NCBI GenBank assembly: GCA_964638385.1
Contig: CAZWZK010000001.1
Coordinates: 1,945-47,448, forward strand
Direction of reading: 5' to 3'
DNA from: an uncultured Gammaproteobacteria bacterium
GTDB taxonomy: Bacteria; Patescibacteriota; Microgenomatia; UBA12405
Length of the DNA: 45,504 bases
The translations under genes were made by a program, and so were the position numbers. The notes below the pieces were generated by a model. It saw only the letters and a list, made by a program, of their open reading frames with translations, was not told where the DNA came from and made no database searches. This document shows positions 1,516 through 45,504 of the stretch, piece after piece (within the stretch, counting starts at the first letter, position 1; each line of letters starts with the position of its first letter).

Positions 1516-1536
1516 CTTTTCATTATATAATATCCT

Positions 1537-2808: not shown

Positions 2809-2812
2809 AGGA

Positions 2813-4267: not shown

Positions 4268-4279
4268 AATTTGAGTTTA

Positions 4280-4288
4280 ATTATATCA
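4280..4288 (-). promoter_or_regulatory. Extended -10 promoter element (TGaTATAAT on minus strand) for rel
   Basis: Plus strand attatatca at 4280-4288 reads TGATATAAT on the minus strand. It lies 12 nt upstream of the rel ATG (4267), inside the 26-nt sortase-rel spacer. Confidence 0.4.
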
Positions 4289-4293
4289 AGAAA

Positions 4294-23314: not shown

Positions 23315-23318
23315 TCTG

Positions 23319-25242: not shown

Positions 25243-25289
25243 ATGTTCCACCTGCTTATTAAATATATATTAATAAATAATTATAGGCT

Positions 25290-25370: not shown

Positions 25371-26099
25371 ATGAAACCATTCTTAATCAATGAGCTTTCT
25401 GTCTTTTTCCCTTGTTATAACGAAGAAAAAAATATAAAAAATACTGTTTCAAAAGCTATCCCAATACTCCAAAAAACAGCTGCCAAATGGGAAATAATTT
25501 TAATTAATGATGGATCAAAAGATAGTACCGGTAAAGTTCTAGAAGAAATTCAACGAGAATATCCAAAACAAATCAAAATTATCACTCATAGTCCCAATCG
25601 TGGATATGGCGCCGCTCTCAAAAGTGGTCTTTATAACTCCCAATATCAATGGATAACCTTCACTGACTCTGATGGCCAATTCGATTTTTCAGAAATTACT
25701 GACCTTATCAAAAAACAGCAGTCGTCAAAAGCCGACATTGTTATTGGTTATTATCTCTCTCGCCAAGTATCAAAAACCGCTATTCTTACCTCAAAAATTT
25801 GGGAACTTATTGTTTTTATCCTTTTTGGGCTTCGTGTAACTGATATTGACTGTGGATTTAAATTGCTTAACAAAAAAGTAGTCGAAACTATTCCTAAGCT
25901 AGAAGCCGAAAGGGGAGCTTTCATTAGTAGTGAATTTTTGATTAAATCCAAAAAGGCCGGTTTCAAAATAGTTGAAATTGGTGTTCATCACTATCCTAGA
26001 GTCGAAGGTAAAGCCACTGGTCGCAATATAAAAGTTATTCTCAAGAGTTTTTCAGATCTCTTTCGTCTTTGGTTTAAAATTAACTTCCATCGTGCTTAA
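25371..26099 (+). CDS. GT2 glycosyltransferase, polyprenyl-phosphate-sugar synthase-like (DPM1/GtrB/ArnC type)
   Basis: FFPCYNEEKNI, INDGSKDSTG, NRGYGAALKSG, DxD FTDSDGQF, DIDCGFKL. The ATG at 25371 is preferred over the TTG at 25350. Confidence 0.8.
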   Translation: MKPFLINELSVFFPCYNEEKNIKNTVSKAIPILQKTAAKWEIILINDGSKDSTGKVLEEIQREYPKQIKIITHSPNRGYGAALKSGLYNSQYQWITFTDSDGQFDFSEITDLIKKQQSSKADIVIGYYLSRQVSKTAILTSKIWELIVFILFGLRVTDIDCGFKLLNKKVVETIPKLEAERGAFISSEFLIKSKKAGFKIVEIGVHHYPRVEGKATGRNIKVILKSFSDLFRLWFKINFHRA

Positions 26100-27567
26100 A
26101 CTAAAAAAATTCTTGCTTTCTAATTTAGTGTTAATTTTCATCCTTATAATAGGTGCTTTTTTGAGGCTTTACAAAATCGATGGGTATATGGAGTTTTTAG
26201 GGGATCAAGGTCGTGATGTCTATATTATTCGTGATTTATTCAAAAATGGTAATCTTTTCTTTATTGGTCCACAAACCAGCATCGGTAACATGTATCTTGG
26301 TCCATGGTTTTATTATTTAATCGCGCCAGCTCTACTCTTGGCCAATTTCAATCCGATCGGCCCAGCAATTTTTATTGCCATTATAAATATTGCTACCATC
26401 GCTCTTATCTACTATGTCTGTCAAAAATGGTTTAACCGCTCAGTTGGTCTAATTTCTGCTTTCCTTTTCAGTATTTCTCCTGTAGTCATCAAATATTCAA
26501 ACTTTATTTGGAACCCAAATATTATGCCATTCTTCTCCTTACTCTTTATCTATTTCTTTTTTGAAGCTGTTTTCCATCATAAATATAAAAACTTCCTTTT
26601 TGCTTCACTTTCATTCGTTATGGTTATCAACAGCCATTATATAGGTTTAGCCCTTTTACCTTTCCCGGGTCTTTGCTGGTTAGTTATCTTAATTAAGTTA
26701 ATTTATTCAAAATCAAAACATTTAAAACCTTTTTTAACTAATACCTTCCTGGCTGGAATTATTTTTGCCGCTTCTTTAATTCCTCAAATTTTATTCGATA
26801 TTAAACATAATGGCCAAAATATCAAAGCCTTAATCAGTTTTTTTACTTATCGGGAAACTACCGTCAATATTAAGCCCTACAAAGCTATCCCTGAACTTCC
26901 TTTGATTTTTAATCAGATTAATACCGACCTAATCTCTGGTAGAAATATTCAAATGGGTATAATCGTCAGTTCTATTTTTGCTCTACTTATAATTTTGTTT
27001 TTATTCAGAGACAAGAAAAATAAAACCAAATTTTGGGTTATTTTGGGATGGTATTTATTCGGACTAATCGCTCTTGCTTTATACAAACAACATATCTACG
27101 CCCATTATTTTGCTTTTCTCTTCCCAGTTGTTTTTATCTTGATCGCTGTTCTAATTAACCGTTTCAAAATAATTGGTGTCCCTCTCTTATTTTTAATCAG
27201 TTACTTATCTATTACTAATACCCATCTTAAGACTCCTCCAAGTTATCAACTAAATCATTCCAAAAATATTGCTCTGGCTATCAATGAACATCTTTCGAAT
27301 TCAGATGGAAAATATAACATTTCCATGTTGGCTTCATACAATGACTTCCGAGCCTTAGCCCCGCGTTATTTTATCAATCAGACTAATCTCCTTTCTCAAG
27401 AGCTTTACCAAGAAGCCGACACTCTATTTGTAATTTTAGACGATCCACGTAAATGGCCCGATGGTGTTAATTCCGACATTTGGGAAATAAACGTCTTTGA
27501 AAGCAAAAAAATAGACCAAGAGTTCAACAGTGTTGATGGCACAAAAATTATTAAATTGATCAAATAA
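26092..27567 (+). CDS. GT-C-like polytopic membrane glycosyltransferase (GT39/83-like), paralog of 1..1515
   Basis: The GTG start overlaps the upstream GT2 by 8 nt. About 11-13 hydrophobic segments. First-loop acidic motif FLGDQGRDVYIIRD. C-terminal soluble domain. Confidence 0.7.
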   Translation: MLKLKKFLLSNLVLIFILIIGAFLRLYKIDGYMEFLGDQGRDVYIIRDLFKNGNLFFIGPQTSIGNMYLGPWFYYLIAPALLLANFNPIGPAIFIAIINIATIALIYYVCQKWFNRSVGLISAFLFSISPVVIKYSNFIWNPNIMPFFSLLFIYFFFEAVFHHKYKNFLFASLSFVMVINSHYIGLALLPFPGLCWLVILIKLIYSKSKHLKPFLTNTFLAGIIFAASLIPQILFDIKHNGQNIKALISFFTYRETTVNIKPYKAIPELPLIFNQINTDLISGRNIQMGIIVSSIFALLIILFLFRDKKNKTKFWVILGWYLFGLIALALYKQHIYAHYFAFLFPVVFILIAVLINRFKIIGVPLLFLISYLSITNTHLKTPPSYQLNHSKNIALAINEHLSNSDGKYNISMLASYNDFRALAPRYFINQTNLLSQELYQEADTLFVILDDPRKWPDGVNSDIWEINVFESKKIDQEFNSVDGTKIIKLIK

Positions 27568-27607
27568 TAAAACACCTAAAGTTAATTTTTTGTATAATTA
27601 AATCAAG

Positions 27608-28375
27608 ATGAATTCTATATCAATTGTCATTCCTTGCTACAACGAAGAAAATAATCTCAAAAGGGGAGTTTTATCTGAAGTTTATGATTTTCTTAAAACC
27701 CAACAAATTGACTGGGAAGTTATCGTCTGCAACGATGAATCGACGGATAACAGTTTGAAATTAGCCCAAGATTTCGTTTCCAAGCACAAAGGTTTCCGTT
27801 GTCTCGATTTACCTCATGGGGGTAAACCATCAGCTGTCTGGGGAGGAATCAAAGAAGCCAAATTCCCAATTGTCTTGTTTACTGACATGGATCAATCCAC
27901 TCCTTTAAAGGAATTGACTAAGCTCATGCCTTATTTTGATCAAGGTTATGATGTTGTTATTGGGTCTCGTGGCATTGATCGCCAAGGGGCTTCTCTCGTC
28001 AGAAAAATTATGGCTCGAGGTTTTCTACTCGGTCGCCGTTTATTTTTACTTCGCAATATTATTGATACTCAATGTGGATTTAAGGCTTTCAAAACCGATT
28101 TAGCCAAAAAACTATTTCCAGAACTCCAATTTTTTAAAGATAAAAGTGAAAAGAAAGGTTGGCGAGTCTCTGCTTTCGATGTTGAATTGTTATTTATGAC
28201 CCAAAAATGGGGATATAAAATCAAAGAAGTTTTAGTTAATTGGAAAGATGAAGATTCTAGTACTACCAAAGGTGACGATGCTACCCGTTTCAAAAAAGAA
28301 TCAAAACAAATGCTCCAAGAAATTATCCGAGTCAAACGCAATGATTTACGGGGTCTATATGATCAAAAAAAATAA
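27608..28375 (+). CDS. GT2 glycosyltransferase, polyprenyl-phosphate-sugar synthase-like (second copy)
   Basis: VIPCYNEENNL, CNDESTDNS, HGGKPSAVWGG, DxD FTDMDQST, DTQCGFKAF. TATAAT at 27593-27598 lies 9 nt upstream of the ATG. Confidence 0.85.
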   Translation: MNSISIVIPCYNEENNLKRGVLSEVYDFLKTQQIDWEVIVCNDESTDNSLKLAQDFVSKHKGFRCLDLPHGGKPSAVWGGIKEAKFPIVLFTDMDQSTPLKELTKLMPYFDQGYDVVIGSRGIDRQGASLVRKIMARGFLLGRRLFLLRNIIDTQCGFKAFKTDLAKKLFPELQFFKDKSEKKGWRVSAFDVELLFMTQKWGYKIKEVLVNWKDEDSSTTKGDDATRFKKESKQMLQEIIRVKRNDLRGLYDQKK

Positions 28376-29885: not shown

Positions 29886-29907
29886 CTCTAGCTGTTAAAA
29901 TATAACC

Positions 29908-31656
29908 ATGTCTAAAATCATCAAACATAAATTATTCTGGCCCATTCTGACTTTTATCCTAACCATACCAGCTTTTTTCTTCCTTCTTAAACCAGGATAT
30001 TTCAATATGCATGATGATATGCAGATGATTCGTCAACTTGAAATGGAAAAGTGTCTCAAAGATGGCCAAATTCCTTGCCGATGGACTCCTGATCTTGGAT
30101 ATGGATATGGATATCCTCTTTTTAATTTTTATCCACCTATGCCTTATTTGGTTGGTCAAGTTTATCGTACGGTTGGATTTTCTTATGTAAACTCTGTCAA
30201 AGCTACAGCCCTAACTCAAATTGTCCTTGCGGCTGCTTTTATGTTTTTATTAGCAAGTTCTATTTTTGGACCTATTGGCGGCTTTATTGCTTCTATTTTT
30301 TACACCTACGCTCCATATCACGCCCTCAATATCTTTGTTAGAGGTGCTATGAATGAAGCTTGGGCTGCTGTCTTTTTTCCTCTGGTTTTTTACTTCTCTA
30401 GACGGCTTATATTAGAAAAGAAAAATAAATTTATTTTCGGCCTCGGAGCCTCATTTGCCGGCATTCTTCTGTCTCACAACCCTATGGCTCTGACATTCAC
30501 CCCAATTCTTTTTCTTTGGGTAATTTTTTGGATCTTTACTCAATACAAAAAACCATTTGGTACTTTTTTTAAAAAACAACTGCCTTTAGTTCTAAAACTA
30601 GTTTTTTCTGGTTTATTTGCTGCTGGTTTAACTGCCTTTTATACCTTTCCAGTTATATTGGAAACAAAATATGTCCAAATTAACACCATGTTCGAAGGTT
30701 ATTATCATTTCTCTGTTCATTTCGCCGGTCTTTTTCAGCTTTTTATTAGTAATTTTTGGGGTGATGGTGCTTCAGTCTGGGGGCCAAACGATGATATGTC
30801 GTTTATGATCGGTTATCTTCATTGGATTATTCCGTTTATTATTTTAATTTTTGCTGCTGTTTCTATTTTTAAGTCCAGAAAAAAACTTAACAAAATTGAT
30901 TCCAAAATCTGGTTAGTTTTATTAACTATCTTTATGGGTTTAAGTGCTGTTTTTATGACCCACAACAAATCCACTTTTATTTGGTTGGCTCTCCCAATTA
31001 TCCAAAAAATTCAATTCCCTTGGCGATTTCTAAACCACGCTGCTTTTCTTCTTTCTTTTTCTGCTGGTGGTATTGTTTTGGTCATTAACAAATATTTACC
31101 AAAAAAGAATCTTTTAGCTTCGTTAATTCTTGCCTTAATTGTTTTAGGTATTAATATTAGTTACTTTACTCCAATTCATTCTGGCCCAATCACTGACGAA
31201 CAAAAATTTTCTGGTAAAGCTTGGGTAAATCAAGTTACTTCAGGAATTTATGATTATCTACCCAACACCGCTAGAATTGCTGCCTTGGGTCCAGCCAAAG
31301 ATTATGTTGATGAAATCTTCCCCGTAGACACCTTCTATACCATTTCAAATGGTCAAAAAGGTAGTGATTGGATGATTTTTAATATCAATATTAATAAACC
31401 AGCAACGGTTACCTTGGCACAACTTGCTTTTCCAAACTTTAAAGTAACCGACAATGGTCAAGAAATATCTTCCAGAATAGAACCAGAACTAGGTCGTTTA
31501 GTTCTTGAACTTTCTGCTGGTGATCATCAATTATTGGTTAAATTTACCAATACTCCAGTTCGGACTATCTCTAATTATATTTCTTTAGCCGCTTGGTTAT
31601 TTTTTGGATTTTTCTTACTAAAACCTTTATGGCTGAAGTTGATCTCCAAGAAATAA
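29908..31656 (+). CDS. Large polytopic membrane protein, GT-C-like (PTPS-related/YfhO-like membrane protein type)
   Basis: LLKPGYFNMHDDMQMIRQLE..IPCRWTPDLGYGYGYPLFNFYPPMPY after TM1. More than 10 TM segments. C-terminal beta-rich domain followed by a final TM segment. Confidence 0.55.
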   Translation: MSKIIKHKLFWPILTFILTIPAFFFLLKPGYFNMHDDMQMIRQLEMEKCLKDGQIPCRWTPDLGYGYGYPLFNFYPPMPYLVGQVYRTVGFSYVNSVKATALTQIVLAAAFMFLLASSIFGPIGGFIASIFYTYAPYHALNIFVRGAMNEAWAAVFFPLVFYFSRRLILEKKNKFIFGLGASFAGILLSHNPMALTFTPILFLWVIFWIFTQYKKPFGTFFKKQLPLVLKLVFSGLFAAGLTAFYTFPVILETKYVQINTMFEGYYHFSVHFAGLFQLFISNFWGDGASVWGPNDDMSFMIGYLHWIIPFIILIFAAVSIFKSRKKLNKIDSKIWLVLLTIFMGLSAVFMTHNKSTFIWLALPIIQKIQFPWRFLNHAAFLLSFSAGGIVLVINKYLPKKNLLASLILALIVLGINISYFTPIHSGPITDEQKFSGKAWVNQVTSGIYDYLPNTARIAALGPAKDYVDEIFPVDTFYTISNGQKGSDWMIFNININKPATVTLAQLAFPNFKVTDNGQEISSRIEPELGRLVLELSAGDHQLLVKFTNTPVRTISNYISLAAWLFFGFFLLKPLWLKLISKK

Positions 31657-33071
31657 AACACAAAACCACCGCCAATGTTCTCTTTTTGTCGCTTAGAAAT
31701 ATTGGTATTCAGGCCATCTCATTTATTGGCTTTTTTTTACTAACTGTTTTACTTGGTACCGCTGACGTTGGTATTTTTGCCATCGTCTCCGAGTCTGTCA
31801 GTATTTTAGGTTACTTTTCTGATGTTGGTTTAGCTGCAGCTTTGATCCAACAAAAAACTGAAGTAACCAAAGATGAAATGCAAACAACTTTTACCATCCA
31901 ACAAATTCTTGTTGGCCTAGCCCTAGTTGTCGCCTTTTTTATTATTAGAAGCAAAAACTTAGGTGGAAATGAATTATGGATTGTTGCAGCTCTTTGTTTT
32001 TCTTTTGCTGCCGCTTCTCTCAAAACCATCCCTTCAGTCCTTCTAGAACGCCGTTTAAATTTTAAATTGATCTCTACTATCGATATTGTCGAAAATGTCA
32101 CTTTCTATGTTTTTGCCGTTCTTTTTGCATTTTTAGGTTTTGGAACTCTTTCTTATGCTATCGCTACTTTTATCCGTAGTGCTCTTGGTTTAATTATTAT
32201 CTACAGTTTTAGTTCCTGGCCAATTGGTTTTTCTTTATCCAAAGATGTTGCCAAAAAATTATTTAAATACGGTATCCCTTACCAATTAAATTCATTTATC
32301 TCTGTCGCCAAAGATAAATTATCAAACCTACTCGTTGCCGGTATTATTGGTACTACTTCATTTGGCCTTCTTTCATGGGCCCAAAAAGGACCTCGAATGC
32401 CACTTAGTTTTATGGATGCAATTATGAAAGTTACTTTCCCAACTTTTGCTCGTCTTCAAGATAACAAAGAGCTTTTAAAAAAATCCCTCGAAAAAAGTTT
32501 ATATTTTATTGCTTTAGTAGTTTTTCCTGTTTTAGTTGGAATTTCCTTTGTTGCCATTGATTTTGTTTATATTGTTCCCAAATACACCAAATGGCTTCCA
32601 GCTATTTTCCCAATGTATTTATATTCATTTAACTATGCCATAGCCGCTATTACAACTCCTATCACTAACGCTTTCAATGCTATTGGTAAAATTACTCTCA
32701 CTACTAAATTTATGATTATGTGGACCGTTTTAACCTGGATATTTTACCCATTACTTAGTTGGAAATTTGGATATATTGGAACTGTTTGGGCCGCTGTTAT
32801 AGTTGGTCTTAGTTCTTTTGCTGTTTGGGTTATTTCTCGAAAGTATTTTGATTTAAATATCTTCTATTCCATCAGGAAACCATTCTTTGGATCTCTCGCT
32901 ATGGTTTTTGTTTTGGTTCTTATTAATTTTCTTTCCCTAAGTCCATTAGTTAATATCCTCACCAAAATATTATTTGGTGTTATCACGTATGGATTATTTT
33001 TATTTGTTTTTTCCAAAGAAGAAGTGAATTGGTTCTTGCAACAACTCCAATGTCTAAAAAACAGAAAATAA
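31629..33071 (+). CDS. Wzx-like (MOP superfamily) polysaccharide/oligosaccharide flippase
   Basis: The ATG at 31629 (MAEVDLQEIKHK..). About 12-14 TM segments. The N-terminus VLFLSLRNIGIQAISFIGFFLL is typical of polysaccharide biosynthesis protein family members. Confidence 0.7.
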   Translation: MAEVDLQEIKHKTTANVLFLSLRNIGIQAISFIGFFLLTVLLGTADVGIFAIVSESVSILGYFSDVGLAAALIQQKTEVTKDEMQTTFTIQQILVGLALVVAFFIIRSKNLGGNELWIVAALCFSFAAASLKTIPSVLLERRLNFKLISTIDIVENVTFYVFAVLFAFLGFGTLSYAIATFIRSALGLIIIYSFSSWPIGFSLSKDVAKKLFKYGIPYQLNSFISVAKDKLSNLLVAGIIGTTSFGLLSWAQKGPRMPLSFMDAIMKVTFPTFARLQDNKELLKKSLEKSLYFIALVVFPVLVGISFVAIDFVYIVPKYTKWLPAIFPMYLYSFNYAIAAITTPITNAFNAIGKITLTTKFMIMWTVLTWIFYPLLSWKFGYIGTVWAAVIVGLSSFAVWVISRKYFDLNIFYSIRKPFFGSLAMVFVLVLINFLSLSPLVNILTKILFGVITYGLFLFVFSKEEVNWFLQQLQCLKNRK

Positions 33072-36058: not shown

Positions 36059-36075
36059 TAAACTAAACATAATTT

Positions 36076-37011
36076 ATGAAATCAAAAGTCAATATTTCAG
36101 CTGTCATTAATGTCCGTAATGAATCAGAACATTTAAATAAATGTCTTAAATCAATCAAAGACTTGGTTGACGAAATTATTGTTGTCGATATGAAATCGAC
36201 CGATAACAGCGTTGCTATCGCCAAAAACTTTGGTGCTAAAGTTTTTAGTTATCGCCCTATGAAATTTGTCGAACCAGCCAGAAACTACGCCCTTTCCAAA
36301 GCTACCGGCAAATGGATTTTGTTGCTAGATCCAGACGAATATTTATCCAAAAGTCTCAAAAAAGAATTAAAGAAAATAACCCAAAGATCAGATGTTGACT
36401 TTGTTAAAATTCCTCGCCAAAATTTTATTTTTGGTAAATGGATTCGCCACGCCAATTGTTGGCCAGATTACCTTATCCGATTCTTCAAAAAAGGTGCTGT
36501 CACTTGGCAAAAAGAAATTCATAGCCAGCCTATTACCAAAGGTAATAGTATTACTTTGCTTGATTCAGAAAAATTAGCTATAAAACACAATAACTATCAA
36601 AACATCAATCAATTTCTCCTTCGCGCTATCCGCTACAGCAACATTCAGGCCGATGAATTAAATGCCAAAGATTACAAAGTCAAAACCAGCGATTTTATTC
36701 TCAAACCTATTCAGGAATTCAATAGCCGTTTCTTTTTTGCCGAAGGCTACAAAGACGGTATTCATGGACTGATTTTTTGTCTTCTCCAAGGCGTTGCTAT
36801 CGGACTCATTTATGCCAAACTTTGGGAGAAGCAAGGATCTGTCGACAAACAACTCCTCAAAGAGTCTTTTGTTTCCGCCAGTCAGGAAGCTAATTTTGAA
36901 TATGATCACTGGTTCTCCAAGTTCTTCAAAGAAGAATATTCTCCAGGAATCTTCAAAGTTCTTCTTATCAGAATTAGACACTGGTTAAATTATTTAACCA
37001 AAAATTTTTAA
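36076..37011 (+). CDS. GT2 glycosyltransferase
   Basis: VINVRNESEHL, VVDMKSTDNS, LLDPDEY. C-terminal hydrophobic helix GLIFCLLQGVAIGLIYAKLW. Paralogous to 37926..38717. Confidence 0.8.
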   Translation: MKSKVNISAVINVRNESEHLNKCLKSIKDLVDEIIVVDMKSTDNSVAIAKNFGAKVFSYRPMKFVEPARNYALSKATGKWILLLDPDEYLSKSLKKELKKITQRSDVDFVKIPRQNFIFGKWIRHANCWPDYLIRFFKKGAVTWQKEIHSQPITKGNSITLLDSEKLAIKHNNYQNINQFLLRAIRYSNIQADELNAKDYKVKTSDFILKPIQEFNSRFFFAEGYKDGIHGLIFCLLQGVAIGLIYAKLWEKQGSVDKQLLKESFVSASQEANFEYDHWFSKFFKEEYSPGIFKVLLIRIRHWLNYLTKNF

Positions 37012-37014
37012 TCT

Positions 37015-37935
37015 ATGGTTAAAATTGCCATTATTGTCTTAAATTGGAATAAGCCAGATCTCACTATTAATACGGTTGATTCGTTATTAAAAATTACCCA
37101 CCATGGGTTCGATTTTCAAATATTTTTAGTCGATAATGGTTCTTCTGATAACTCAATCACTCTCTTCGAAGAAAGATTTTCTAAACAATCATTAGTCAAA
37201 ATTCTCCAAGCTGGGAGCAACTTAGGTTTTGTTGGTGGTAACAATTTTGGCATCAAGCAAAGCCTTAAACTTGGATTTGACTACGTATTATTAATTAATA
37301 ATGATGTTTCAGTTGACCCTAATTTTCTTTCCAACCTCCTAAAAGCTGCCAAAGATAAATACGCTATTTCTGCTCCAAAGATTTATTTTTCCCCAGGGTG
37401 TGAATATCACCAAAATCGTTATTCCAAATCAGAAATTGGACATGTTATTTGGTTTGCCGGTGGCCAAATAGACTGGAATAATATTTATGGTAGCCACATT
37501 GGTGTTGATGAAGTTGACCATGGTCAATTCGATAAAATCAACCCTAATATAGATTTCCTTACCGGTTGTTGTCTTTTAATTCAAAAAGATGTTTTTGATC
37601 AAATTGGTTTACTTGATGAGAAATATTTTATGTATCTAGAAGATGCTGATTTTTGCCAAAGAGCCAAAAAGAAAGGCTTTAAAATCGCTTATATCCCTCA
37701 ATCAAAAATCTGGCATATCAACGCCGGATCTTCAAAAAGTGGGGGAGATCTTCATGATTATTTTTTGACCCGTAATCGACTTATATTTGGTCTCCGATAT
37801 GCTAAACTAAGGACAAAAATAGCCCTTATAAAAGAATCTATTGTTCAATTATTTTCACCCTCGACCACTAAATGGCAAAAAAATGGAATTATCGATTTCT
37901 ATATTAAAAAATTAGGCAAAGGATCATGGCAATAA
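37015..37935 (+). CDS. GT2 glycosyltransferase (rhamnosyl/galactosyl-transferase-like)
   Basis: IIVLNWNKPDLT, VDNGSSDNS, NLGFVGGNNFG, LLINNDV, YLEDADFCQRAKKKGF. Confidence 0.85.
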   Translation: MVKIAIIVLNWNKPDLTINTVDSLLKITHHGFDFQIFLVDNGSSDNSITLFEERFSKQSLVKILQAGSNLGFVGGNNFGIKQSLKLGFDYVLLINNDVSVDPNFLSNLLKAAKDKYAISAPKIYFSPGCEYHQNRYSKSEIGHVIWFAGGQIDWNNIYGSHIGVDEVDHGQFDKINPNIDFLTGCCLLIQKDVFDQIGLLDEKYFMYLEDADFCQRAKKKGFKIAYIPQSKIWHINAGSSKSGGDLHDYFLTRNRLIFGLRYAKLRTKIALIKESIVQLFSPSTTKWQKNGIIDFYIKKLGKGSWQ

Positions 37936-38717
37936 AAACACCTATTTCTATCATTATTTTGGCTGGTAACGAAGAAAAAATGATTGTTGATTGTCTCAAA
38001 ACGTGCAATTGGGCTAGTGAAATTGTTTTAGTTGCCGCCAATTCTTCTGATAATACGGTTTCTTTGGCAAAAAAAACTATTCCTGGTATTAAGGTGGTTA
38101 AGACCGAAGACGAATATAATAAAAATTTTAGTAAATGGCGTAATCTTGGGTTCAAATCGAGCACTCAACAATGGATTATATATATTGATGCTGATGAACG
38201 GATTACTCCAGATCTTCAAAGAAAAATTATTGCTATTGTCAAATCCAAAAATTCTAAATTTACTCATTATGCTATTCCTCGAGCTAATCATTTCTTAGGA
38301 CAAAGAGTTCGTTATGGCGGATCTTATCCTGATTATGTCAAAAGGTTATATAACCGAGATTTTTTTAACGGCTACAAAGGCGTTCTCCACGAGGAACCGA
38401 TTATTACTGGAGAATTGGGTTATATAGATTCTGATTTGCTTCACTACACTCACCGAGACCTTACTTCTATGGTTAACAAGACACTTGTTTGGAGCGATAC
38501 TGAAGCCCAAGCATTATTTAAGTCTGGCCACCCTCCTGTTGTGTGGTGGAGATTTATTAGAATGATGTTAACTAAACTCTGGGAACGTCTCGTCAAGCAG
38601 CAAATGTGGCGTGATAAAGAAGTTGGTTGGGTCTCTGTTATTTTTGAAGTCTTTAATACATTTTTGATTTACGCCCGACTCTGGGAATTACAACAAAAAC
38701 AAAATCAAAAAATTTAA
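37926..38717 (+). CDS. GT2 glycosyltransferase
   Basis: IILAGNEEKMI, AANSSDNT, IDADER. The C-terminal helix resembles that of 36076..37011. Overlaps the upstream gene by 10 nt. Confidence 0.8.
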   Translation: MAIKTPISIIILAGNEEKMIVDCLKTCNWASEIVLVAANSSDNTVSLAKKTIPGIKVVKTEDEYNKNFSKWRNLGFKSSTQQWIIYIDADERITPDLQRKIIAIVKSKNSKFTHYAIPRANHFLGQRVRYGGSYPDYVKRLYNRDFFNGYKGVLHEEPIITGELGYIDSDLLHYTHRDLTSMVNKTLVWSDTEAQALFKSGHPPVVWWRFIRMMLTKLWERLVKQQMWRDKEVGWVSVIFEVFNTFLIYARLWELQQKQNQKI

Positions 38718-38732
38718 GGTATTATTAAGTTG

Positions 38733-39914
38733 ATGGCAAAGAAAGCAGCAATTTATGATCCGTATTTAGATACTCTTGGTGGTGGTGAAAGATATTGTTT
38801 AAGTGTCGCCGAAATTCTTCTTAAAAATGGCTACGAAGTAGACTTGCTTTGGTCAGGAGATAGTTCTTTGGTTCAAAAAGCCGAAAAAAGATTTTCTCTC
38901 AACTTAAACAATCTAAAAATTGTTCCTGATGTCTATGGAATTCAACCCAAAAACCTCGATTTATTGGAAGAAAACGATCATATATCGAAATTCATTAATC
39001 GAACCATCAATCCTCAAAAGATTAATTTAAAAATTAATCAATTAATTAATAAATTCAAAAATAACCGTAAATACGACGTAATATTCTATATTAGCGACGG
39101 TAGTCTACCTTTATTGTTTGGCAAAAAAAATTATCTCCATGTTCAAGTTCCTTTTGTTGCCAAAAATAACTTATCTTCAAAAATAATTCATCAATTGAAA
39201 TCAAAGTTCTTTACTAATGTTATTTGCAATTCACAATTTACAGCATCATTCCAAGAAAAAGCCTTAAAAAATAAAGTTCTTGTGGTTTATCCTCCAGTAG
39301 ACGTTGATAAGTTTTATTCCAACAATAATAAAGAAAATATTATTCTTTCTGTTGGTCGTTTTGATAATATCCTCAATGCCAAAAAACAAGATGTTCTCAT
39401 TGATGGATTTAGAAAACTTTACGAAACCATCCCAAGCCTCAATTGGAAGCTAGTTTTAGCCGGAGGAAGTTTACTTGATCCAGAAAAAAATTCCTATCTT
39501 CAGTATCTCCAGAAAAAAGCTCAAAATCTTCCTGTAGAGTTTGTAGTTAATCCTCCATTTAATATTCTCCAAGAGATTTACTCTAAATCCAAAATTTATT
39601 GGCACGCTGCCGGTTTTGAAGTTGACGAAAAAATTCACCCCGAAAACACTGAACACTTTGGTATCACTGTTGTTGAAGCCATGTCTTCGGGATTAGTTCC
39701 TGTAGTTATAAATCAAGGTGGTATACCCGAAATTGTCGATAATGGTGTTACTGGTTTTCTTTGGAAAACACTTGATGATCTCGTTTCAAAAACCCAAAAA
39801 CTTATCGACAATCCAGAAACATTAAAGCTTATGTCTCAACAGTCCCTTATTAATTGCCAACAGTTTTCCAAAGATAATTTCGAGAAAAAACTTATGGGTA
39901 TAATTGATAGATAA
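38733..39914 (+). CDS. GT4-type (Glycos_transf_1, GT-B fold) glycosyltransferase
   Basis: N-terminal DTLGGGERY. C-terminal EHFGITVVEAMSSGLVPVV..GGIPEIV..GVTGFL (E-x7-E region). Confidence 0.85.
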   Translation: MAKKAAIYDPYLDTLGGGERYCLSVAEILLKNGYEVDLLWSGDSSLVQKAEKRFSLNLNNLKIVPDVYGIQPKNLDLLEENDHISKFINRTINPQKINLKINQLINKFKNNRKYDVIFYISDGSLPLLFGKKNYLHVQVPFVAKNNLSSKIIHQLKSKFFTNVICNSQFTASFQEKALKNKVLVVYPPVDVDKFYSNNNKENIILSVGRFDNILNAKKQDVLIDGFRKLYETIPSLNWKLVLAGGSLLDPEKNSYLQYLQKKAQNLPVEFVVNPPFNILQEIYSKSKIYWHAAGFEVDEKIHPENTEHFGITVVEAMSSGLVPVVINQGGIPEIVDNGVTGFLWKTLDDLVSKTQKLIDNPETLKLMSQQSLINCQQFSKDNFEKKLMGIIDR

Positions 39915-39915
39915 T

Positions 39916-40794
39916 ATGAAAATTTCTGTCGTTGTCACTAACTGGAATGGATTAAAACTCCTCAAGAAAAATCTTGAAACCATTATTAAAAATAGCCCAG
40001 AAGCCGATGAAATTATTTTGGCCGATGATGCCTCAGAAGACAAAAGTATTGCTTACGCCACGAAATTAAAATCTATCTATCCAAAATTAAAAATAATCAC
40101 TCATCATAAAAATATTGGCTTTGGTGCCAATTCCAATGATGCTGTCAACAAATCAAGTGGCGAACTTGTTGTTTTATTAAACAACGATATTCTTCCTCAT
40201 CCTAATTATATTTCTAATTCCTTAAAGCATTTTTCTGACCCAAACGTCTTTGGAGTTGGATTTGCCGAAGTTGGCCATGAAAATTGGGCTAGATTTTTTT
40301 GGAAAAACGGCTACCTTCAACATGAACCAGGAACATCCAATATTCGTAAAACTCATATCTCTGGCTGGGTTTCTGGTGGTAGTGCCATAGTCAGAAAAAG
40401 TTTATTCCAAAAATTAGGTGGCTTTGATCATATTTATCATCCTTTTTATTCAGAAGATCTTGATTTAGGTTATCGTGCTTGGAAATCAGGCTTCATCCTT
40501 CTTTGGGAACCAAAAAGTGTGGTCGAACATCGTCATGAAGCCACTATGTCTAAATTTTCCCTTAGCTTACTTAATTATGTCAAAGAAAGAAATCGTCTCC
40601 TCAATACTTGGCGCAATATCACTGACCCTGATTTATTAACCTCCAACAAAAGATATCTTTTTTTGCGAGTTTTAAGTGGTCCAAACTATATTAAGATAAT
40701 TCGTGCCGCCAAAAAGAAAATAAAAATATCTCCACCACCAATTGTTTTCCCCAAACTAACTGATCAAGAAATTTTAAAAAAGTTTACTCAGTAA
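39916..40794 (+). CDS. GT2 glycosyltransferase
   Basis: The ATG at 39916 (MKISVVVTNWNGLKLL). ADDASEDKS, NIGFGANSN, LLNNDI, FYSEDLDLGYRAWKSGF. Confidence 0.85.
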   Translation: MKISVVVTNWNGLKLLKKNLETIIKNSPEADEIILADDASEDKSIAYATKLKSIYPKLKIITHHKNIGFGANSNDAVNKSSGELVVLLNNDILPHPNYISNSLKHFSDPNVFGVGFAEVGHENWARFFWKNGYLQHEPGTSNIRKTHISGWVSGGSAIVRKSLFQKLGGFDHIYHPFYSEDLDLGYRAWKSGFILLWEPKSVVEHRHEATMSKFSLSLLNYVKERNRLLNTWRNITDPDLLTSNKRYLFLRVLSGPNYIKIIRAAKKKIKISPPPIVFPKLTDQEILKKFTQ

Positions 40795-41271
40795 ATGAAT
40801 CGTAAAAAATTTCTTTCCATATATTTACCTCTTTGTTTATTTTTTAGTCTCTTTCTGTTTTTTGGACTTAGAAGTATTTCTCAAAAAAAATTTTCTCTTG
40901 AAAAGTTTAATACTCTTACTAATACAACTTCAGCCTTAAAAGATAAAACAGACAATCTTTGTAAATACCAAATACTTAGTGAACCCAAAGTTGGTGATCA
41001 ATACGTTAAAATAAATTTTTGGTGTCAAAATTTAACCAAAGCCAGAAGTACCCTTTCTTTGGCTGCTATTCCTGAAACTACTATTGAAGGTGTCCTAAAA
41101 GAATATGCCAGAATCATTAATTTTGACTACAATTTAATCGCTCAAAAACAATGGTACTGTCTAATTAACGACCAAGAAATCTCTTCGGCTAGCCTCAATC
41201 AAACTGTAAAACCCGCCAGCACCATAGATTGTTTCGAAAATAAAAGTTTATCTCGCTATGATCAAAAATAG
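40795..41271 (+). CDS. Hypothetical membrane-anchored, cysteine-containing extracytoplasmic protein
   Basis: TM segment IYLPLCLFFSLFLFFGL. The rest is soluble and contains 4 Cys. There is zero spacing to the upstream gene and a 14-nt overlap with the downstream gene. Confidence 0.4.
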   Translation: MNRKKFLSIYLPLCLFFSLFLFFGLRSISQKKFSLEKFNTLTNTTSALKDKTDNLCKYQILSEPKVGDQYVKINFWCQNLTKARSTLSLAAIPETTIEGVLKEYARIINFDYNLIAQKQWYCLINDQEISSASLNQTVKPASTIDCFENKSLSRYDQK

Positions 41272-42655: not shown

Positions 42656-42659
42656 GTTT

Positions 42660-43979
42660 ATGAAAAAATTTCTTCTTTTCTCTTTTTTTATATTTATTTC
42701 TCTAGTACTGCGAATTATTATCTCCATCAACATCATCCCTCAAGGAGACGTTCTAGTTCATCAAGAGTGGGGGAGTTTTTTGTATCACCAAGGCCTCGCT
42801 GGATCATATTTTTCTCAAGGATGGACATATACTCCACCAACCCAACCACCTCTAATGATGATGTCTTATTTTGTTTCTCATTTAATTTATGAAAATCGCA
42901 ACATTTTTTCACTACTTCACAACTACACCAAGATTCCACCCGCCTTCATTTTAATTGGTTTCCAAAAATATGGTGAAATTTTGACTCTCAGAATTTGGGA
43001 GTTTTTGGGAACCCTAACCATAGCTCTATTTCTTTATTTTAATTATTCAAAAACTCATTCTTTCAAAAAAAGATTACTAATTTTTCTTGCCATAATTTTC
43101 AATCCTATTTCGATTTTTATTAATTCCGTTTGGGGTCAAAACGATATTCTGCCCACCAGCTTTCTTTATCTATCATTTATTTCGTTGTTTTCTTCTTTCA
43201 GTGTTCTTAGCCCAGCAATTTTTACCTTAGGTGTATTATTTAAACCTACTATTGCTGTTATTTCTCCTTTGTATCTTATTGTTTATCTATATCTCTTAAA
43301 AAAACAAAGTCTAAAAAACAACTTATCAAAAACAATTTTGGTTATCTGCTCAGTCCTTCTTATTGTTTTTGTTTCTTTTAAACCATTCATCCCTCTCGAA
43401 ACAAAGCCGCTCGGGTATATTTCCGATATTGTTAATCATCGTATCAGTACTTCTTCTAAGGGCCTTAAATTAGCCTCAGTTTCTGCTTTCAATATATATT
43501 CCCTTATTTTCAATATCGATCAAACATACGCCACCAATGACAAATCATTTATCCAATTAGCCGACATTAGCAGTATTTTATTTGTTGTTATTAATATATT
43601 TTTTATTACCAAACTTATTCGATCCAAAAAAATTACCTTCAATCACACTTTATTTTCTATATTCTTTATCTCTCAAGGATCCTTCTTGTTTATGACCAAT
43701 ATGCTTGACCGATATTTTATCCCCGCGTTTTTGGCTTCAATAGTTATTGCCATAATTTATTGGAAAAAATTTGGCTGGCTAATGATTGCCCAACAAATAA
43801 TTTGGTTTTTAAATCTTATTTATGCCTATTATTATCGAGTTAATGAACCTATCAACCATCTCTTTAGAGATAATAATTTTCTTGTAATTAGATTAATTTC
43901 TTTAATTAGTATTCTTGTCTTTATTTGCCTTTTTCAGCGATATCAAAAATATCTTTCCGTAAATAAACAAATTGATTAA
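42660..43979 (+). CDS. GT-C-like polytopic membrane protein (PIG-V/GT87/DUF2029-like mannosyltransferase type)
   Basis: QGDVLVHQEWGSFLY after TM1, SVWGQNDILP, LFKPTIAVISPLYL. Paralog of 43902..45245. Confidence 0.55.
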   Translation: MKKFLLFSFFIFISLVLRIIISINIIPQGDVLVHQEWGSFLYHQGLAGSYFSQGWTYTPPTQPPLMMMSYFVSHLIYENRNIFSLLHNYTKIPPAFILIGFQKYGEILTLRIWEFLGTLTIALFLYFNYSKTHSFKKRLLIFLAIIFNPISIFINSVWGQNDILPTSFLYLSFISLFSSFSVLSPAIFTLGVLFKPTIAVISPLYLIVYLYLLKKQSLKNNLSKTILVICSVLLIVFVSFKPFIPLETKPLGYISDIVNHRISTSSKGLKLASVSAFNIYSLIFNIDQTYATNDKSFIQLADISSILFVVINIFFITKLIRSKKITFNHTLFSIFFISQGSFLFMTNMLDRYFIPAFLASIVIAIIYWKKFGWLMIAQQIIWFLNLIYAYYYRVNEPINHLFRDNNFLVIRLISLISILVFICLFQRYQKYLSVNKQID

Positions 43980-45245
43980 CGATAAAATCTTTGGCACCAA
44001 TTGATCAGCCCAAGCAAAAACAATTTTTATTCCATCAAGTTGTTGTGGCACCGAAAAAACATAAAACATACTCAAGAAATAAATTGAGGATAAAATAACA
44101 AAATATTTCCAATATTCTTTTTTATATATCGAATAAAATAATAGCGATACTATAGCAAAAAACGAATATCTTTCATGCATCCCTGTCATAAACAACCAAC
44201 CTCCAAATCCAATGGTAAAAATCGACAAAAACACCGTCTCTAGCTTTTTATATTTTACTAATCTAAAAGACAGCAAAGACACCACGCCCAACAAAATCCA
44301 ACCCCATGTTTTTGCTGTTAAAAACAAATATTTCGTCGTTTCAAATCCGACCTTACTTGGAAAAGGAAAAAACAAATACCAAAAGTTAAATGAATTTTGA
44401 TTAATCAAACCTTCACTAGTATTCAATCTTTTTGCCAACAAAAAAAATAAATCCATAATTTTTCCAGCGTTAAACCAAGTCACCGTCCAAACACTAAAAA
44501 TTCCAGCCAATAAACCACCAAGTATTAAATTCCTCCATGGTTGCTTTTGTTTAAACCACACCACCAAAAACAAAGGTGCCAAAATCACACAATTCGGTTT
44601 TAAATTGATGGCAATAGCATAAAGCAACGGAGCCCAAATTGAACGTTTAGTAGTCAGTAATACAAAAGAAATTATCAAAAATAAAAATGACAATTGATCA
44701 GATTGACCCCAAACTGCCGATAAATACCATGAAAATGGCAACAATAAATAAGCCAGCACAAATTTTTTCCAGTCAACTTTCTTGAGTTTACATATTTTAT
44801 AAATCACCCAAGCCACCAATAAATCAGCCAAAACCATAATTTGTTTAATCACAATAATTACCCCCAACAAATACTCCGTGTTTTCATATCTTGCTGTCCC
44901 AAACCATTTTGAAAAATTAAAAAGCCACAAAAATTTTGTTGGTGCCAGTCTATTAAGAGCAATAAAATTACCCAAATTAGATAACAACATCATCAAAAAA
45001 GAGTGTGTTTTGTAAGCCAAAAAATATACCGAACTAATTAAAGGTGGGTGATTTGGCCAAATGCAAGCCCAAACATTCCAGTTATACAAACCTTTTGGAC
45101 TATCATTCACATACATCCATTTGCCCCATTCAGTTTGAACTCTAATATCGCTATGCGCCGGCAAAAACGACAATGCAAATCTCATTAAGATCAAAAACGC
45201 CAACAAACTTACTGTTTTCCAATTATTTCTAAGCCATTGTTTCAT
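43902..45245 (-). CDS. GT-C-like polytopic membrane protein, convergent paralog of 42660..43979
   Basis: HSDIRVQTEWGKWMY, AVWGQSDQLS and INLKPNCVILAPLFL align with the neighbouring protein. TATAAT (plus 45251-45256) lies 5 nt upstream of the ATG. Confidence 0.55.
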   Translation of the reverse strand: MKQWLRNNWKTVSLLAFLILMRFALSFLPAHSDIRVQTEWGKWMYVNDSPKGLYNWNVWACIWPNHPPLISSVYFLAYKTHSFLMMLLSNLGNFIALNRLAPTKFLWLFNFSKWFGTARYENTEYLLGVIIVIKQIMVLADLLVAWVIYKICKLKKVDWKKFVLAYLLLPFSWYLSAVWGQSDQLSFLFLIISFVLLTTKRSIWAPLLYAIAINLKPNCVILAPLFLVVWFKQKQPWRNLILGGLLAGIFSVWTVTWFNAGKIMDLFFLLAKRLNTSEGLINQNSFNFWYLFFPFPSKVGFETTKYLFLTAKTWGWILLGVVSLLSFRLVKYKKLETVFLSIFTIGFGGWLFMTGMHERYSFFAIVSLLFYSIYKKEYWKYFVILSSIYFLSMFYVFSVPQQLDGIKIVFAWADQLVPKILSLINLFIYGKIFLISLKKANKDKNTN

Positions 45246-45306
45246 AACTAATTATAACCTGCACTAGAACAACTTTTTAACTTAATTTAATGTAAAATTA
45301 CAGCAT

Positions 45307-45504
45307 ATGGCTTTAGCCCTATCAATCATTATTCCTACCTGGAACACCGCCCAAACCACCCTGAAGTGCATCAATACCATCAAAAAAAACCTCTCGGATA
45401 TTTCTTATGAAATAATCGTCGTTGACAATGGTTCCATCGACAACACGGCTCAAGAAATTGAAAAATTAAAAAATTCATTGAAAACCTGCCTCGCCAACAG
45501 GCGG
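45307..45504 (+). CDS. GT2 glycosyltransferase, N-terminal fragment (runs off window)
   Basis: My translation is MALALSIIIPTWNTAQTTLKCINTIKKNLSDISYEIIVVDNGSIDNTAQEIEKL. TAAAAT at 45293-45298 lies 8 nt upstream of the ATG. It is not in the track because no stop lies in the window. Confidence 0.75.
   Translation, partial: MALALSIIIPTWNTAQTTLKCINTIKKNLSDISYEIIVVDNGSIDNTAQEIEKLKNSLKTCLANRR

Follow-up and report, generated by a model that had tools for sequence, protein, structure and literature searches.

A conserved Microgenomates gene cluster proposed to build a cell-surface glycan on polyprenyl-phosphate carriers

Introduction

What might a bacterium with a small genome build with a block of genes given over entirely to glycosylation? 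Bacteria of the candidate phyla radiation (CPR, or Patescibacteria) account for a large share of bacterial diversity; they live attached to hosts, hardly any of them have been cultured, and the composition of their envelopes is largely unknown. Here we analyse a stretch of DNA of 45,504 nt (the window; G+C ~33%, 43 sizeable open reading frames, ORFs) in which every ORF from position 25371 to the window end at 45504, a region that we call the island, encodes a glycosylation-type or membrane protein. The host is a small-genome member of the Microgenomates (CPR/Patescibacteria), probably of the Shapirobacteria, because the named close homologues of the island proteins belong to Candidatus Shapirobacteria or Woesebacteria. 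This accords with the small genome presumed in a first-pass annotation made from the letters of the window, and the heavy investment in extracytoplasmic glycosylation proposed there is the natural reading of the locus.

Our answer, to which we assign a probability of about 0.7, is that the island forms an operon, conserved in this lineage, whose products build a glycan of the cell surface on polyprenyl-phosphate carriers via two cooperating arms. What is established, at the level of sequence family and modelled fold, is a set of two predicted donor synthases, eight polytopic glycosyltransferases (GTs) of the GT-C class, a MOP flippase, five soluble GTs and one outer domain with a hydrolase/deacetylase fold.

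A twelve-gene core kept in order across related genomes

From 25371 onwards the island holds seven GT2-type genes, one GT4-type gene, one gene for a Wzx-like flippase, seven for polytopic proteins and one for a small anchored protein, and the ORF map and Pfam searches upheld this inventory as the first-pass annotation had drawn it up. The eighth polytopic paralog that it had placed at the other window edge, here named E1 (1..1515, minus strand, truncated at the edge), is 25% identical to the island protein C1 (26092) over 421 aa (E 4e-16). Fifteen genes between 25371 and 43979 are co-directional, with spacers of -28 to +40 nt that we recomputed from the ORF coordinates and found to match, and three pairs overlap: A2a-C1 by 8 nt, A2b-C2 by 17 nt and Wzx-C4 by 22 nt. 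The core of the island (25371-40794) runs A2a-C1-A2b-C2-C3-Wzx-C4-G1-G2-G3-GT4-G4; all coordinates below refer to the plus strand unless a minus strand is given.

A scan with one genome per species found 390 loci encoding C4, and the best 78 related loci, fetched with the C4 profile, made up the synteny set; gene counts are given out of 79 loci, many of which are cut by contig ends. The core order was kept in nearly all 78 species-level loci, down to ~40% amino-acid identity and across Shapiro-, Woese- and Blackburnbacteria, so that the neighbourhood comparison proposed earlier revealed more than chance, namely an arrangement recurring in conserved order in ~78 other species-level genomes. C4 was present in 75 loci, Wzx in 72, G1 in 71, C3 in 63, G2 and G3 in 61 each, GT4 in 58, C2 in 56, A2b in 53, G4 in 52, C1 in 51 and A2a in 40. 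The distal genes are variable (sm 9, C5 14, C6 6, C7 15, E1 3), and the tails of relatives carry two more PMT_2 types, a 786-aa YfhO-like protein (23 loci), a methyltransferase and further polytopic proteins. In one related genome, L003, the sequence FtsX, C39-like protein, DUF11 protein, A2a-C1-A2b-C2-C3-Wzx-C4-G1-G2-G3-GT4-G4-sm-C5 is found exactly as here.

Four GT-C genes sit in the core whose order related loci keep, and the others form a tail that differs from locus to locus; the high GT-C density is therefore a trait of the lineage and not of this genome alone. The density had been flagged as unusual, which holds against Firmicutes but not within this lineage, where it is the norm. An order of twelve genes maintained from Shapiro- to Woese- and Blackburnbacteria makes the cluster a strong candidate pathway for a major Microgenomates surface glycan, and it provides concrete targets for heterologous expression and for the analysis of glycans and glycoproteins in enrichments.

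Many of the contigs L006-L081, from binchicken co-assemblies, bear the title 'uncultured Gammaproteobacteria bacterium', and that of L069 is 'Clostridia bacterium'. Since they carry the same Microgenomates operon, these non-CPR titles look like placeholders or misassignments.

Two predicted donor synthases beside GT-C genes

The island opens with A2a (25371..26099), a GT2 of 242 aa without a transmembrane (TM) helix (Pfam Glycos_transf_2 2.8e-29), and a second GT2 of this kind, A2b (27608..28375; 255 aa; Glycos_transf_2 above the Pfam cut-off), follows C1. The two are paralogs (28% identity, E 1e-15) and by homology are predicted polyprenyl-phosphate sugar synthases of the GtrB/ArnC/DPMS-like type, giving the donor-forming step for the GT-C enzymes. 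The best solved relatives of A2a were GtrB (5EKP, 1.3e-16), ArnC (5.6e-15) and DPMS (5MLZ, 1.7e-9), and those of A2b were DPMS (5MLZ, 2.1e-14), GtrB (5e-14) and ArnC (~2e-8). Among NCBIfam models, ArnC and a haloarchaeal dolichol-phosphate (Dol-P) hexose transferase aligned with both proteins over nearly their full length, as did PpgS with A2a; the PgfS model matched both over the first ~160-170 residues only, and the AglJ model was also matched, with all scores far below the equivalog cut-offs. DxD-type motifs (FTDSDGQ and FTDMDQS) are present in the sequences.

The C-terminal anchoring TM helices of GtrB, ArnC and Pyrococcus DPMS are not seen in A2a or A2b, which have 0-1 weak hydrophobic stretch; this lowers the certainty that they are polyisoprenyl-phosphate glycosyltransferases and still allows membership of that class. 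Human DPM1 and mycobacterial Ppm1 are TM-less members of it. In this respect A2a and A2b resemble GacI, a TM-less GT-A that works with the helper GacJ and a Wzx-type flippase (PMC8035078).

The polytopic proteins as GT-C enzymes

For each of the eight polytopic proteins, Pfam, profile-to-PDB matches or AlphaFold 2 models searched with Foldseek support a GT-C assignment, and these checks agree with the earlier view that they are GT-C-like and not transporters. A hydropathy scan placed ~8-11 TM segments in the seven complete proteins and six in truncated E1, and the models of C3 and C4 contain 11-13 long helices. PMT_2 was matched above the Pfam cut-off (26.1 bits) by C1 (26092..27567; 491 aa, ~9 TM segments; 36.5 bits), C2 (28359..29885; 508 aa; 36.0 bits) and, in the variable tail, C5 (41258..42655; 465 aa; 48.1 bits). 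C1 and C2 also match the NCBIfam model Agl23, weakly and far below its cut-off, and E1 is borderline on PTPS_related (26.3 against a cut-off of 26.4).

C3 (29908..31656; 582 aa), whose C-terminal part is a beta-rich outer domain followed by a last TM helix, matches no Pfam or NCBIfam model itself; among its relatives PMT_2 was matched in 12 of 35 and PTPS_related in 11 of 35. Its model (pLDDT 81, pTM 0.86) retrieved STT3/PglB (3e-4) and ArnT (1.4e-3), then Emb, DPY19, AftD and Pmt, with a Foldseek probability of 1.0 for oligosaccharyltransferases (OSTs), ArnT and most other GT-C enzymes, 0.98 for the best Emb and ≤0.16 for MFS transporters. C3 has >2144 homologues, the best 120 of them at 57-93% identity, and few membrane proteins of the cluster are as well conserved.

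The tail proteins C6 (42660..43979; 439 aa; a weak, sub-threshold Alg6_Alg8 match) and C7 (43902..45245, minus strand; 447 aa; no Pfam or NCBIfam match of its own) are paralogs (26% identity over 432 aa, E 2e-21) of PIG-M/ALG6/GT87-like type, lying convergently. Their family profile (52 sequences) matched GPI mannosyltransferase 1 (PIG-M) at 2.6e-10 and ALG6 (6SNH) at 1e-7, and family members match GT87, Alg6_Alg8, ALG3 and PMT_2, some being named 'Gpi18-like mannosyltransferase' by the Joint Genome Institute; C6 has 430 representative proteins at E≤1e-3. As single sequences against the PDB, C3 and C4 (29908 and 33050) found no match and C6 (42660) chance ClpP matches only, with no GT-C among them. 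The 3' ends of C6 and C7 overlap by 78 nt (43902-43979), an arrangement also found in the independent contig L001.

An acidic motif in outer loop 1 is typical of GT-C enzymes, and every such motif that had been quoted for this island is present. In family alignments built with the related loci and covering seven of the eight polytopic families, the key residues were conserved at 91-100% in six (C1-C3 and C5-C7): D38 of GDQGRD in C1 at 91% and D37/E38 of GDEAIY in C2 at 100% (54 sequences each), D36 and D37 of MHDDMQ in C3 at 97% and 94%, D37/E38 of VDEYSY in C5 at 100%, D30 in C6 at 100% and D33 in C7 at 100% (52 sequences); D475 of C4 is invariant. The YDQARD motif of E1, read from a single sequence, sits at the position of GDQGRD in C1. 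Loop 1 was placed outside by the positive-inside rule. Since profile-profile comparison gave a probability of 1.7% for C4 against C3 and 33% for C3 against C6/C7, the C3, C4 and C6/C7 families are related only at fold level. The GtrB/DPMS-like synthases next to them lend indirect support to the view that the GT-C enzymes use polyprenyl-phosphate sugar donors.

C4, a three-part protein exchanged as a cassette

The polytopic set had been treated as of one kind; it is GT-C throughout, but C4 (33050..36058; 1002 aa) differs in kind, a feature that the first-pass annotation had missed, in that it combines an OST/DPY19-like fold with a DUF3863 domain. A signal anchor is followed by a DUF3863-like domain (~30-400), a GT-C membrane domain of ~13 helices (~415-860) and a C-terminal outer domain (864-1002). 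Apart from noise the protein has no Pfam or NCBIfam match, and its membrane part has none across 50 relatives. That part is very strongly conserved in a 50-sequence alignment, with the motifs GFWGPNGHDGIWH, NYHWGFD, GGESLFW and QKGTxWNTIQFFYY and, among other residues, invariant H474, D475, H479, H506 and D510. The named ones among its 561 homologues (E≤1e-5) are all from the CPR.

In the AlphaFold 2 model (pLDDT 89, pTM 0.84), the N-terminal domain matched 3LM3 (BDI_3119, a DUF3863 'putative glycoside hydrolase/deacetylase'; 8.8e-12, target TM-score 0.66) and then CE4-type deacetylases; 3LM3 was also the sole PDB match of the C4 family profile (4.5e-4), and DUF3863 was matched in 5 of 50 relatives. 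The membrane and C-terminal part retrieved STT3 (2e-10 to 1e-8), DPY19 (3e-9), AglB (4.5e-8) and PglB (1e-6), followed more weakly by AftD, Emb and Pmt (1e-3 to 1e-2). For the C3 and C4 models together, the Foldseek probability was 1.0 for nearly all GT-C enzymes and at most 0.16-0.2 for MFS transporters and G-protein-coupled receptors. The C-terminal domain of C4 weakly matches the C-terminal globular domain of AglB (3VU0, E 2e-2, probability 1.0), and its conserved stretch reads PLYAYETTAYVSA, with no WWD motif there. Judged by its model, C4 is a GT-C whose closest fold neighbours are OSTs and the C-mannosyltransferase DPY19. We do not file it as an OST, because it shows no STT3 match, no OST profile match and no WWD motif. 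Reading C4 as a Wzy polymerase was also rejected: EpsG was matched at 16.9 bits against a cut-off of 30.1, in one of 50 relatives, and the GT-C fold is preferred.

The long form with the N-terminal domain occurs in ~20 of the 78 best related loci, and the other proteins start at about residue 420-450. One related locus, L032, is 94-100% identical in nucleotide sequence to the window on both flanks and carries, between the wzx stop (33071) and ~36100 near the G1 start, a short-form C4 (5837-7600 of that contig) that has no 1.4-kb N-domain and shares only ~60% nucleotide and 56% protein identity with the C4 of the window. Both alleles share the 22-nt wzx overlap and the first codons (MSKKQKI). 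In a second pair of loci C4 is 64% identical where its neighbours are 92%, and in one pair the relation is reversed (72% against 51%), so that discordant pairs run in both directions (L005/L054 and L010/L049). C4 thus behaves like a specificity-determining gene that is swapped as a cassette between near-identical strains, which points to surface variation under selection, for example by phages or hosts.

The flippase, the soluble glycosyltransferases and a small partner protein

The flippase gene (31629..33071; 480 aa; Polysacc_synt_3 7.8e-43) encodes a Wzx-type MOP protein, matched in NCBIfam by a MOP flippase (1e-33), an O-glycosylation Wzx (6e-22) and TuaB (5e-21); it lies three genes downstream of the A2a-C1/A2b-C2 pairs, and its overlap with C4 is also present in L003 and L032. 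Directly after C4 come five soluble GTs. G1 (36076..37011; 311 aa; Glycos_transf_2 1e-18) and its paralog G3 (37926..38717; 263 aa; 8e-16) are 27% identical (E 1e-23) and closest to GmaR and SunS, which were the best solved relatives of G1 at 2.6e-20 and 6.6e-14. G2 (37015..37935; 306 aa; Glycos_transf_2 and Glyco_tranf_2_3) and G4 (39904..40794, its start also called at 39916; 296 aa; Glycos_transf_2 2.5e-21), the last core gene, share 28% identity (E 3e-21) and are closest to galactofuranosyl- and rhamnosyltransferase-type GT2s; for G2 the NCBIfam match was a rhamnosyltransferase subfamily (5e-17) and the best solved relatives were galactofuranosyltransferases (6e-9). Between G3 and G4 lies a GT4 glycosyltransferase of GT-B fold (38733..39914; 393 aa; Glycos_transf_1 1.4e-23). 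None of the five has a convincing TM segment (G1 has one weak hydrophobic stretch), and they are presumed to be cytoplasmic.

The small protein sm (40795..41271; 158 aa), with one N-terminal TM anchor and no family match, adjoins a C5 homologue in all nine of the loci that have it, in either orientation, which suggests an accessory partner of C5, perhaps for acceptor recognition. At the far end of the island, G5 (45307..45504; Glycos_transf_2 5.9e-12) is an N-terminal GT2 fragment cut by the window end.

What accompanies the cluster and what does not

The components of multi-component transmembrane glycosylation are all in the island: GT-A, flippase and GT-C are present, and A2a-C1 and A2b-C2 are adjacent. 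The components of a Wzx/Wzy-dependent pathway are there in part, with Wzx and soluble GTs in the window but no initiating phosphoglycosyltransferase (PGT), Wzy or Wzz/PCP. Pfam and NCBIfam scans of the 45.5-kb window found no PGT of the WecA/MraY or WbaP type, nor did a PGT appear among the gene families recurring within ±10 kb in the 78 relatives. The same scans found in the window no sugar-nucleotide gene and no Wzz-type regulator, and nothing above threshold for Wzy_C, O-antigen polymerase or Wzz/GNVR. No GtrA-type flippase is encoded in the window, where the short multi-TM ORFs all fall within known genes that are read in a different frame, and no GacJ-like helper was recognised in the island. 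TagO, WecA and RgpG are commonly encoded away from their clusters.

The absence of WecA/WbaP-type enzymes, sugar-nucleotide genes, GtrA and Wzz from the window had been noted before, and our scans bear it out. The accompanying statement that there is no obvious priming enzyme stands for a PGT that would make the undecaprenyl-PP-oligosaccharide of a Wzx-type flippase, but not for donor synthesis, since A2a and A2b are GtrB/ArnC/DPMS-like. Nor is the lack of GtrA an anomaly, as a Wzx-type flippase (GacK) fills that role in Streptococcus pyogenes (PMC8035078).

A proposed pathway with two arms

In the first arm of the pathway that we propose, A2a and A2b would charge polyprenyl phosphate with single sugars on the inner side of the membrane. 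The carriers would be flipped, and C1 and C2, together with C3 and the variable C5, C6, C7 and E1, would move the sugars to an acceptor at the outer face, using the conserved acidic residue of the first outer loop. That the synthases feed the adjacent GT-C enzymes, and that the genes form a single operon, we infer. In the second arm G1-G4 and GT4 may build a lipid-linked oligosaccharide; Wzx would export it, and C4 would pass it to the final acceptor or to the growing chain. Processing of the glycan would fall, in this strain, to the DUF3863 outer domain of C4. Wzx may flip the monosaccharide carriers as well, a role proposed for GacK in S. pyogenes (PMC8035078). The PGT of the second arm would be encoded elsewhere, or would be unneeded if a DPMS/AglJ-like GT2 primes on a monophosphate carrier, for which AglJ gives a precedent (PMC3871713). 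An oligosaccharide donor for C4 is suggested only by the conserved wzx overlap.

Two neighbours of the island bear on the acceptor. An LCP (LytR-CpsA-Psr) ligase (20138..21163; LytR_cpsA_psr 3.5e-23) is a candidate for a wall-attachment step. A DUF11 surface protein (24613..25251, minus strand; 212 aa; DUF11 1e-14), encoded divergently from the glycosylation operon, ends in IPETG, a hydrophobic stretch and RKKIRGY, that is, in a sortase sorting signal; a sortase gene lies at 4294..5013 (minus strand; Sortase 9e-17). Ahead of the DUF11 gene stands a sigma-70 consensus matching at 12 of 12 positions (TTGACA-17-TATAAT at 25318-25290, minus strand), the only clear site in the scan. Twenty-three related loci encode a homologue of the protein (~214 aa; DUF11/CLIPPER in L003) close to the cluster, and in L003 its gene lies immediately upstream. 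Read from its sequence, the protein has two N-X-S/T sequons only, and a Ser/Thr-rich disordered region is absent; it is a possible acceptor glycoprotein.

We tentatively favour, at slightly short of even odds, a heteroglycan of the wall that the LCP enzyme would later attach to peptidoglycan, because of the nearby LCP gene, the hydrolase/deacetylase-fold domain, the number of GT-C enzymes, the GlfT-like G2 and G4 and the serotype-like exchange of C4. Surface proteins are a possible acceptor, held with less confidence, on account of the OST/DPY19-like fold of C4, the PgfS-, AglJ- and Agl23-like matches, the GmaR/SunS-like G1 and G3, the DUF11 IPETG protein and streptococcal precedent; a membrane glycolipid takes the remaining share.

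Several points weigh against the two-arm pathway. The functions of all island proteins are predicted from family and fold comparison, and co-transcription is read from spacing alone, promoter and terminator counts in the island not being enriched over shuffles. The second arm is incomplete as observed, given the absence of a PGT, Wzy, Wzz and sugar-nucleotide genes from the window and of a PGT among the recurrent neighbours of the relatives. GmaR and SunS glycosylate proteins or peptides directly in the cytoplasm, and G1 and G3 may likewise bypass the lipid carrier. As for C4, its Foldseek TM-scores are moderate (0.33-0.50 on target, root-mean-square deviation 12-17 Å), so that 'OST-like' denotes a fold class only, and it has no sequence-level similarity to OSTs, with no STT3 match in 50 members, no PDB OST chain and neither a WWDYG nor a DK/MI motif.

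Other accounts of the locus were considered. A general protein glycosylation system of Agl or Pgf logic, in which C4 would be an OST moving a Wzx-flipped glycan en bloc onto an S-layer protein, pilins or sortase substrates (the neighbouring DUF11 protein, for example) and the other GT-C enzymes would add O-linked or terminal sugars, is a serious but doubtful candidate. It fits the fact that the best fold matches of C4 are all protein-modifying GT-C enzymes (2e-10 to 1e-6, against ≥1e-3 for AftD and Emb) and the weak match between its C-terminal domain and the globular one of AglB (3VU0, E 2e-2); it fits the matches of A2a and A2b to PgfS and AglJ and of C1 and C2 to Agl23, the nearness of G1 to GmaR and SunS, the strongly promoted IPETG surface protein beside the operon and, near the cluster, in 23 relatives, and the Pgf precedent with LPXTG adhesins. 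Against it stand the missing STT3 Pfam match and the WWDYG and DK/MI motifs absent from C4, the number of core GT-C enzymes (at least four), which exceeds known protein systems, the DUF3863 hydrolase/deacetylase-fold domain, which suggests a polysaccharide substrate, and the scarcity of sequons and lack of a Ser/Thr-rich disordered region in the DUF11 protein. A more ambitious version of the same idea strikes us as improbable: C4 would found a CPR-specific family of OST-like GT-C enzymes and, with Wzx, the five soluble GTs and DPMS/AglJ-like primers, constitute a bacterial en-bloc pathway of archaeal logic that starts on polyprenyl monophosphate without a PGT and modifies surface proteins or the wall in Microgenomates, C4 being the exchangeable, specificity-determining and possibly phage-driven element.

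Alternatively, the island might hold decoration-only modules acting on a polymer made elsewhere, with Wzx flipping polyprenyl-P-monosaccharides, C4 acting as a monosaccharide GT-C and the soluble GT2 and GT4 enzymes working on unrelated cytoplasmic or lipid acceptors, which we regard as unlikely. To our knowledge, characterised GT-C enzymes of this fold class, OSTs excepted, use monosaccharide carriers. Such an arrangement would need no PGT, Wzy or Wzz, none of which was found in the window, and the GacI/J/K/L system, with a TM-less GT-A and a Wzx-type flippase, gives it a precedent (PMC8035078) that the TM-less A2a and A2b resemble. An unrelated pathway is hard to square, however, with five soluble GTs fixed in order right after Wzx-C4 in ~60 species; backbone-synthesis genes accompany the cluster in no relative, and Wzx is the island's only exporter for the product of the soluble GTs. 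It is very improbable that the polytopic proteins act in transport or as structural components of the membrane and lie among GT genes by coincidence. C3, C4 and C7 do lack Pfam and NCBIfam matches of their own, that of C6 is sub-threshold, and C3, C4 and C6 matched no GT-C in the PDB as single sequences. But PMT_2 is above cut-off in three proteins, C3 relatives match PMT_2 and PTPS_related, the C6/C7 profile matches PIG-M and ALG6, Foldseek gave 1.0 for nearly all GT-C enzymes against ≤0.16-0.2 for MFS transporters and G-protein-coupled receptors, the loop-1 Asp is conserved in seven of eight families, and the order with GT genes is kept in 78 loci. On the fold, profile and acidic-residue evidence we rejected the transporter reading.

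Relation to characterised systems

Mycobacteria assemble arabinogalactan and lipoarabinomannan with Ppm1, PimE, MptA-C, AftA-D, EmbA-C and Lcp1, many GT-C enzymes acting in series, outside the membrane, on polyprenyl-P-sugar donors. Their polyprenyl-P-mannose synthase is TM-less, a cytoplasmic lipid-carrier stage is followed by an outer stage, and an LCP ligase attaches the product to peptidoglycan. Unlike the island, whose relation to this machinery is at superfamily level only, the mycobacterial genes are scattered or lie in different clusters, and WecA and sugar-activation genes are known there and not seen here.

STT3, AglB, PglB and DPY19 share with C4 a GT-C domain of ~13 helices followed by an outer C-terminal domain, and an acidic residue in outer loop 1; the C4 gene is, in addition, coupled to that of a lipid-linked-glycan flippase. 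Unlike them, C4 shows no detectable sequence similarity to this group and lacks WWDYG, DK/MI and TIXE; its C-terminal domain is only ~140 aa long, it has invariant motifs of its own (GPNGHDGIWH, NYHWGFD, GGESLFW and QKGTxWNTIQFFYY), and about one in four of its relatives carries an N-terminal DUF3863 domain. If the C4 family uses oligosaccharide donors, the bacterial range of such enzymes would be widened beyond PglB.

In the Agl system of Haloferax volcanii, AglJ primes on Dol-P and works with AglG, AglI, AglE, AglD, AglR, AglS and AglB (PMC3871713). As proposed for the island, DPMS-like GT2s act on a monophosphate carrier, soluble GTs extend the lipid-linked glycan, a Wzx-like flippase is present and an OST-fold GT-C works beside a second GT-C whose sugar comes from another carrier, and no PGT is needed. 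The sequence link is tenuous, the NCBIfam matches to AglJ, Agl23, Agl16 and the Dol-P hexose transferase being weak and far below family cut-offs, and the island differs in having a bacterial host with peptidoglycan, a C4 that is not STT3-family by sequence and lacks WWDYG, and many more GT-C enzymes.

Gram-positive multi-component systems include CsbB/GtcA/YfhO, CsdAB/CD/EF with CflA, and GacI/J/K/L (PMC8035078). GT-A/GT-C gene pairs occur in Firmicutes, with three pairs in the whole genome of Bacillus subtilis (PMC8035078), and S. pyogenes has two GT-C genes of unknown function besides GacL (PMC12041528). The island resembles these systems in that a GT-A predicted to charge undecaprenyl phosphate (C55-P) with one sugar is encoded beside a polytopic GT-C that would act outside the cell, with several pairs per genome, and resembles the Gac system in its TM-less GT-A and Wzx-type flippase. 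Unlike them, it joins two pairs, at least two unpaired core GT-C enzymes and five soluble GTs in one 12-gene operon; it has no GtrA-type flippase and no recognised GacJ-like helper; and its GT-C enzymes are PMT_2/PTPS-related, PIG-M/ALG6-like or unannotated, not YfhO, although a YfhO-like gene does sit beside the cluster in 23 relatives.

GtrB/PgtC2 and PgfS/PgfM1 are protein O-glycosylation systems (PMC12041528). In the streptococcal Pgf and GtrB/PgtC2 systems a GtrB-like GT2 and a GT-C modify sortase-anchored adhesins and membrane proteins outside the cell, and in Streptococcus mutans adhesin genes lie within the Pgf gene cluster (PMC12041528, PMC5856776); A2a and A2b match the PgfS model. 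Unlike the island, these systems have YfhO-type GT-C enzymes, no Wzx and no block of soluble GTs, and the DUF11 protein beside the island is without a Ser/Thr-rich disordered region.

That a GT-A synthase, a flippase and a GT-C can work together is already well described in Gram-positive bacteria (PMC8035078). Taken as a whole, the island has its closest analogues in the Gram-positive multi-component systems, the haloarchaeal Agl pathway and mycobacterial wall assembly. What is new is the presence of both proposed arms in one class-wide conserved operon, together with an unannotated GT-C family of OST-like fold that is coupled to Wzx, carries an optional DUF3863 domain and behaves as a cassette. 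We found no published description of this operon in the literature searched, which does not prove it unpublished.

The rest of the window

The region from 1537 to 25251 holds housekeeping and division genes (UvrC, RelA/SpoT, sortase, GreA, LysRS, SerRS, SecA, BipA and a release factor) and also encodes the LCP ligase, FtsE, FtsX, a coiled-coil protein and the DUF11 protein. The coiled-coil protein (23286-24506), a secreted protein of 406 aa encoded after FtsE and FtsX, has a long coiled coil with weak EnvC/SMC matches and no Pfam match itself; a close homologue in L003 has a weak Peptidase_C39_2 match. By its sequence it looks like an EnvC-like partner of FtsEX, in which a putative cysteine-peptidase-type domain replaces LytM. 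Searches for RNA genes found neither a tRNA gene nor any Rfam family in the 45.5-kb window. GC skew is negative across the whole window (-0.02 to -0.32) and is lowest at 1-5000 and 43000-45000, where the genes lie on the minus strand.

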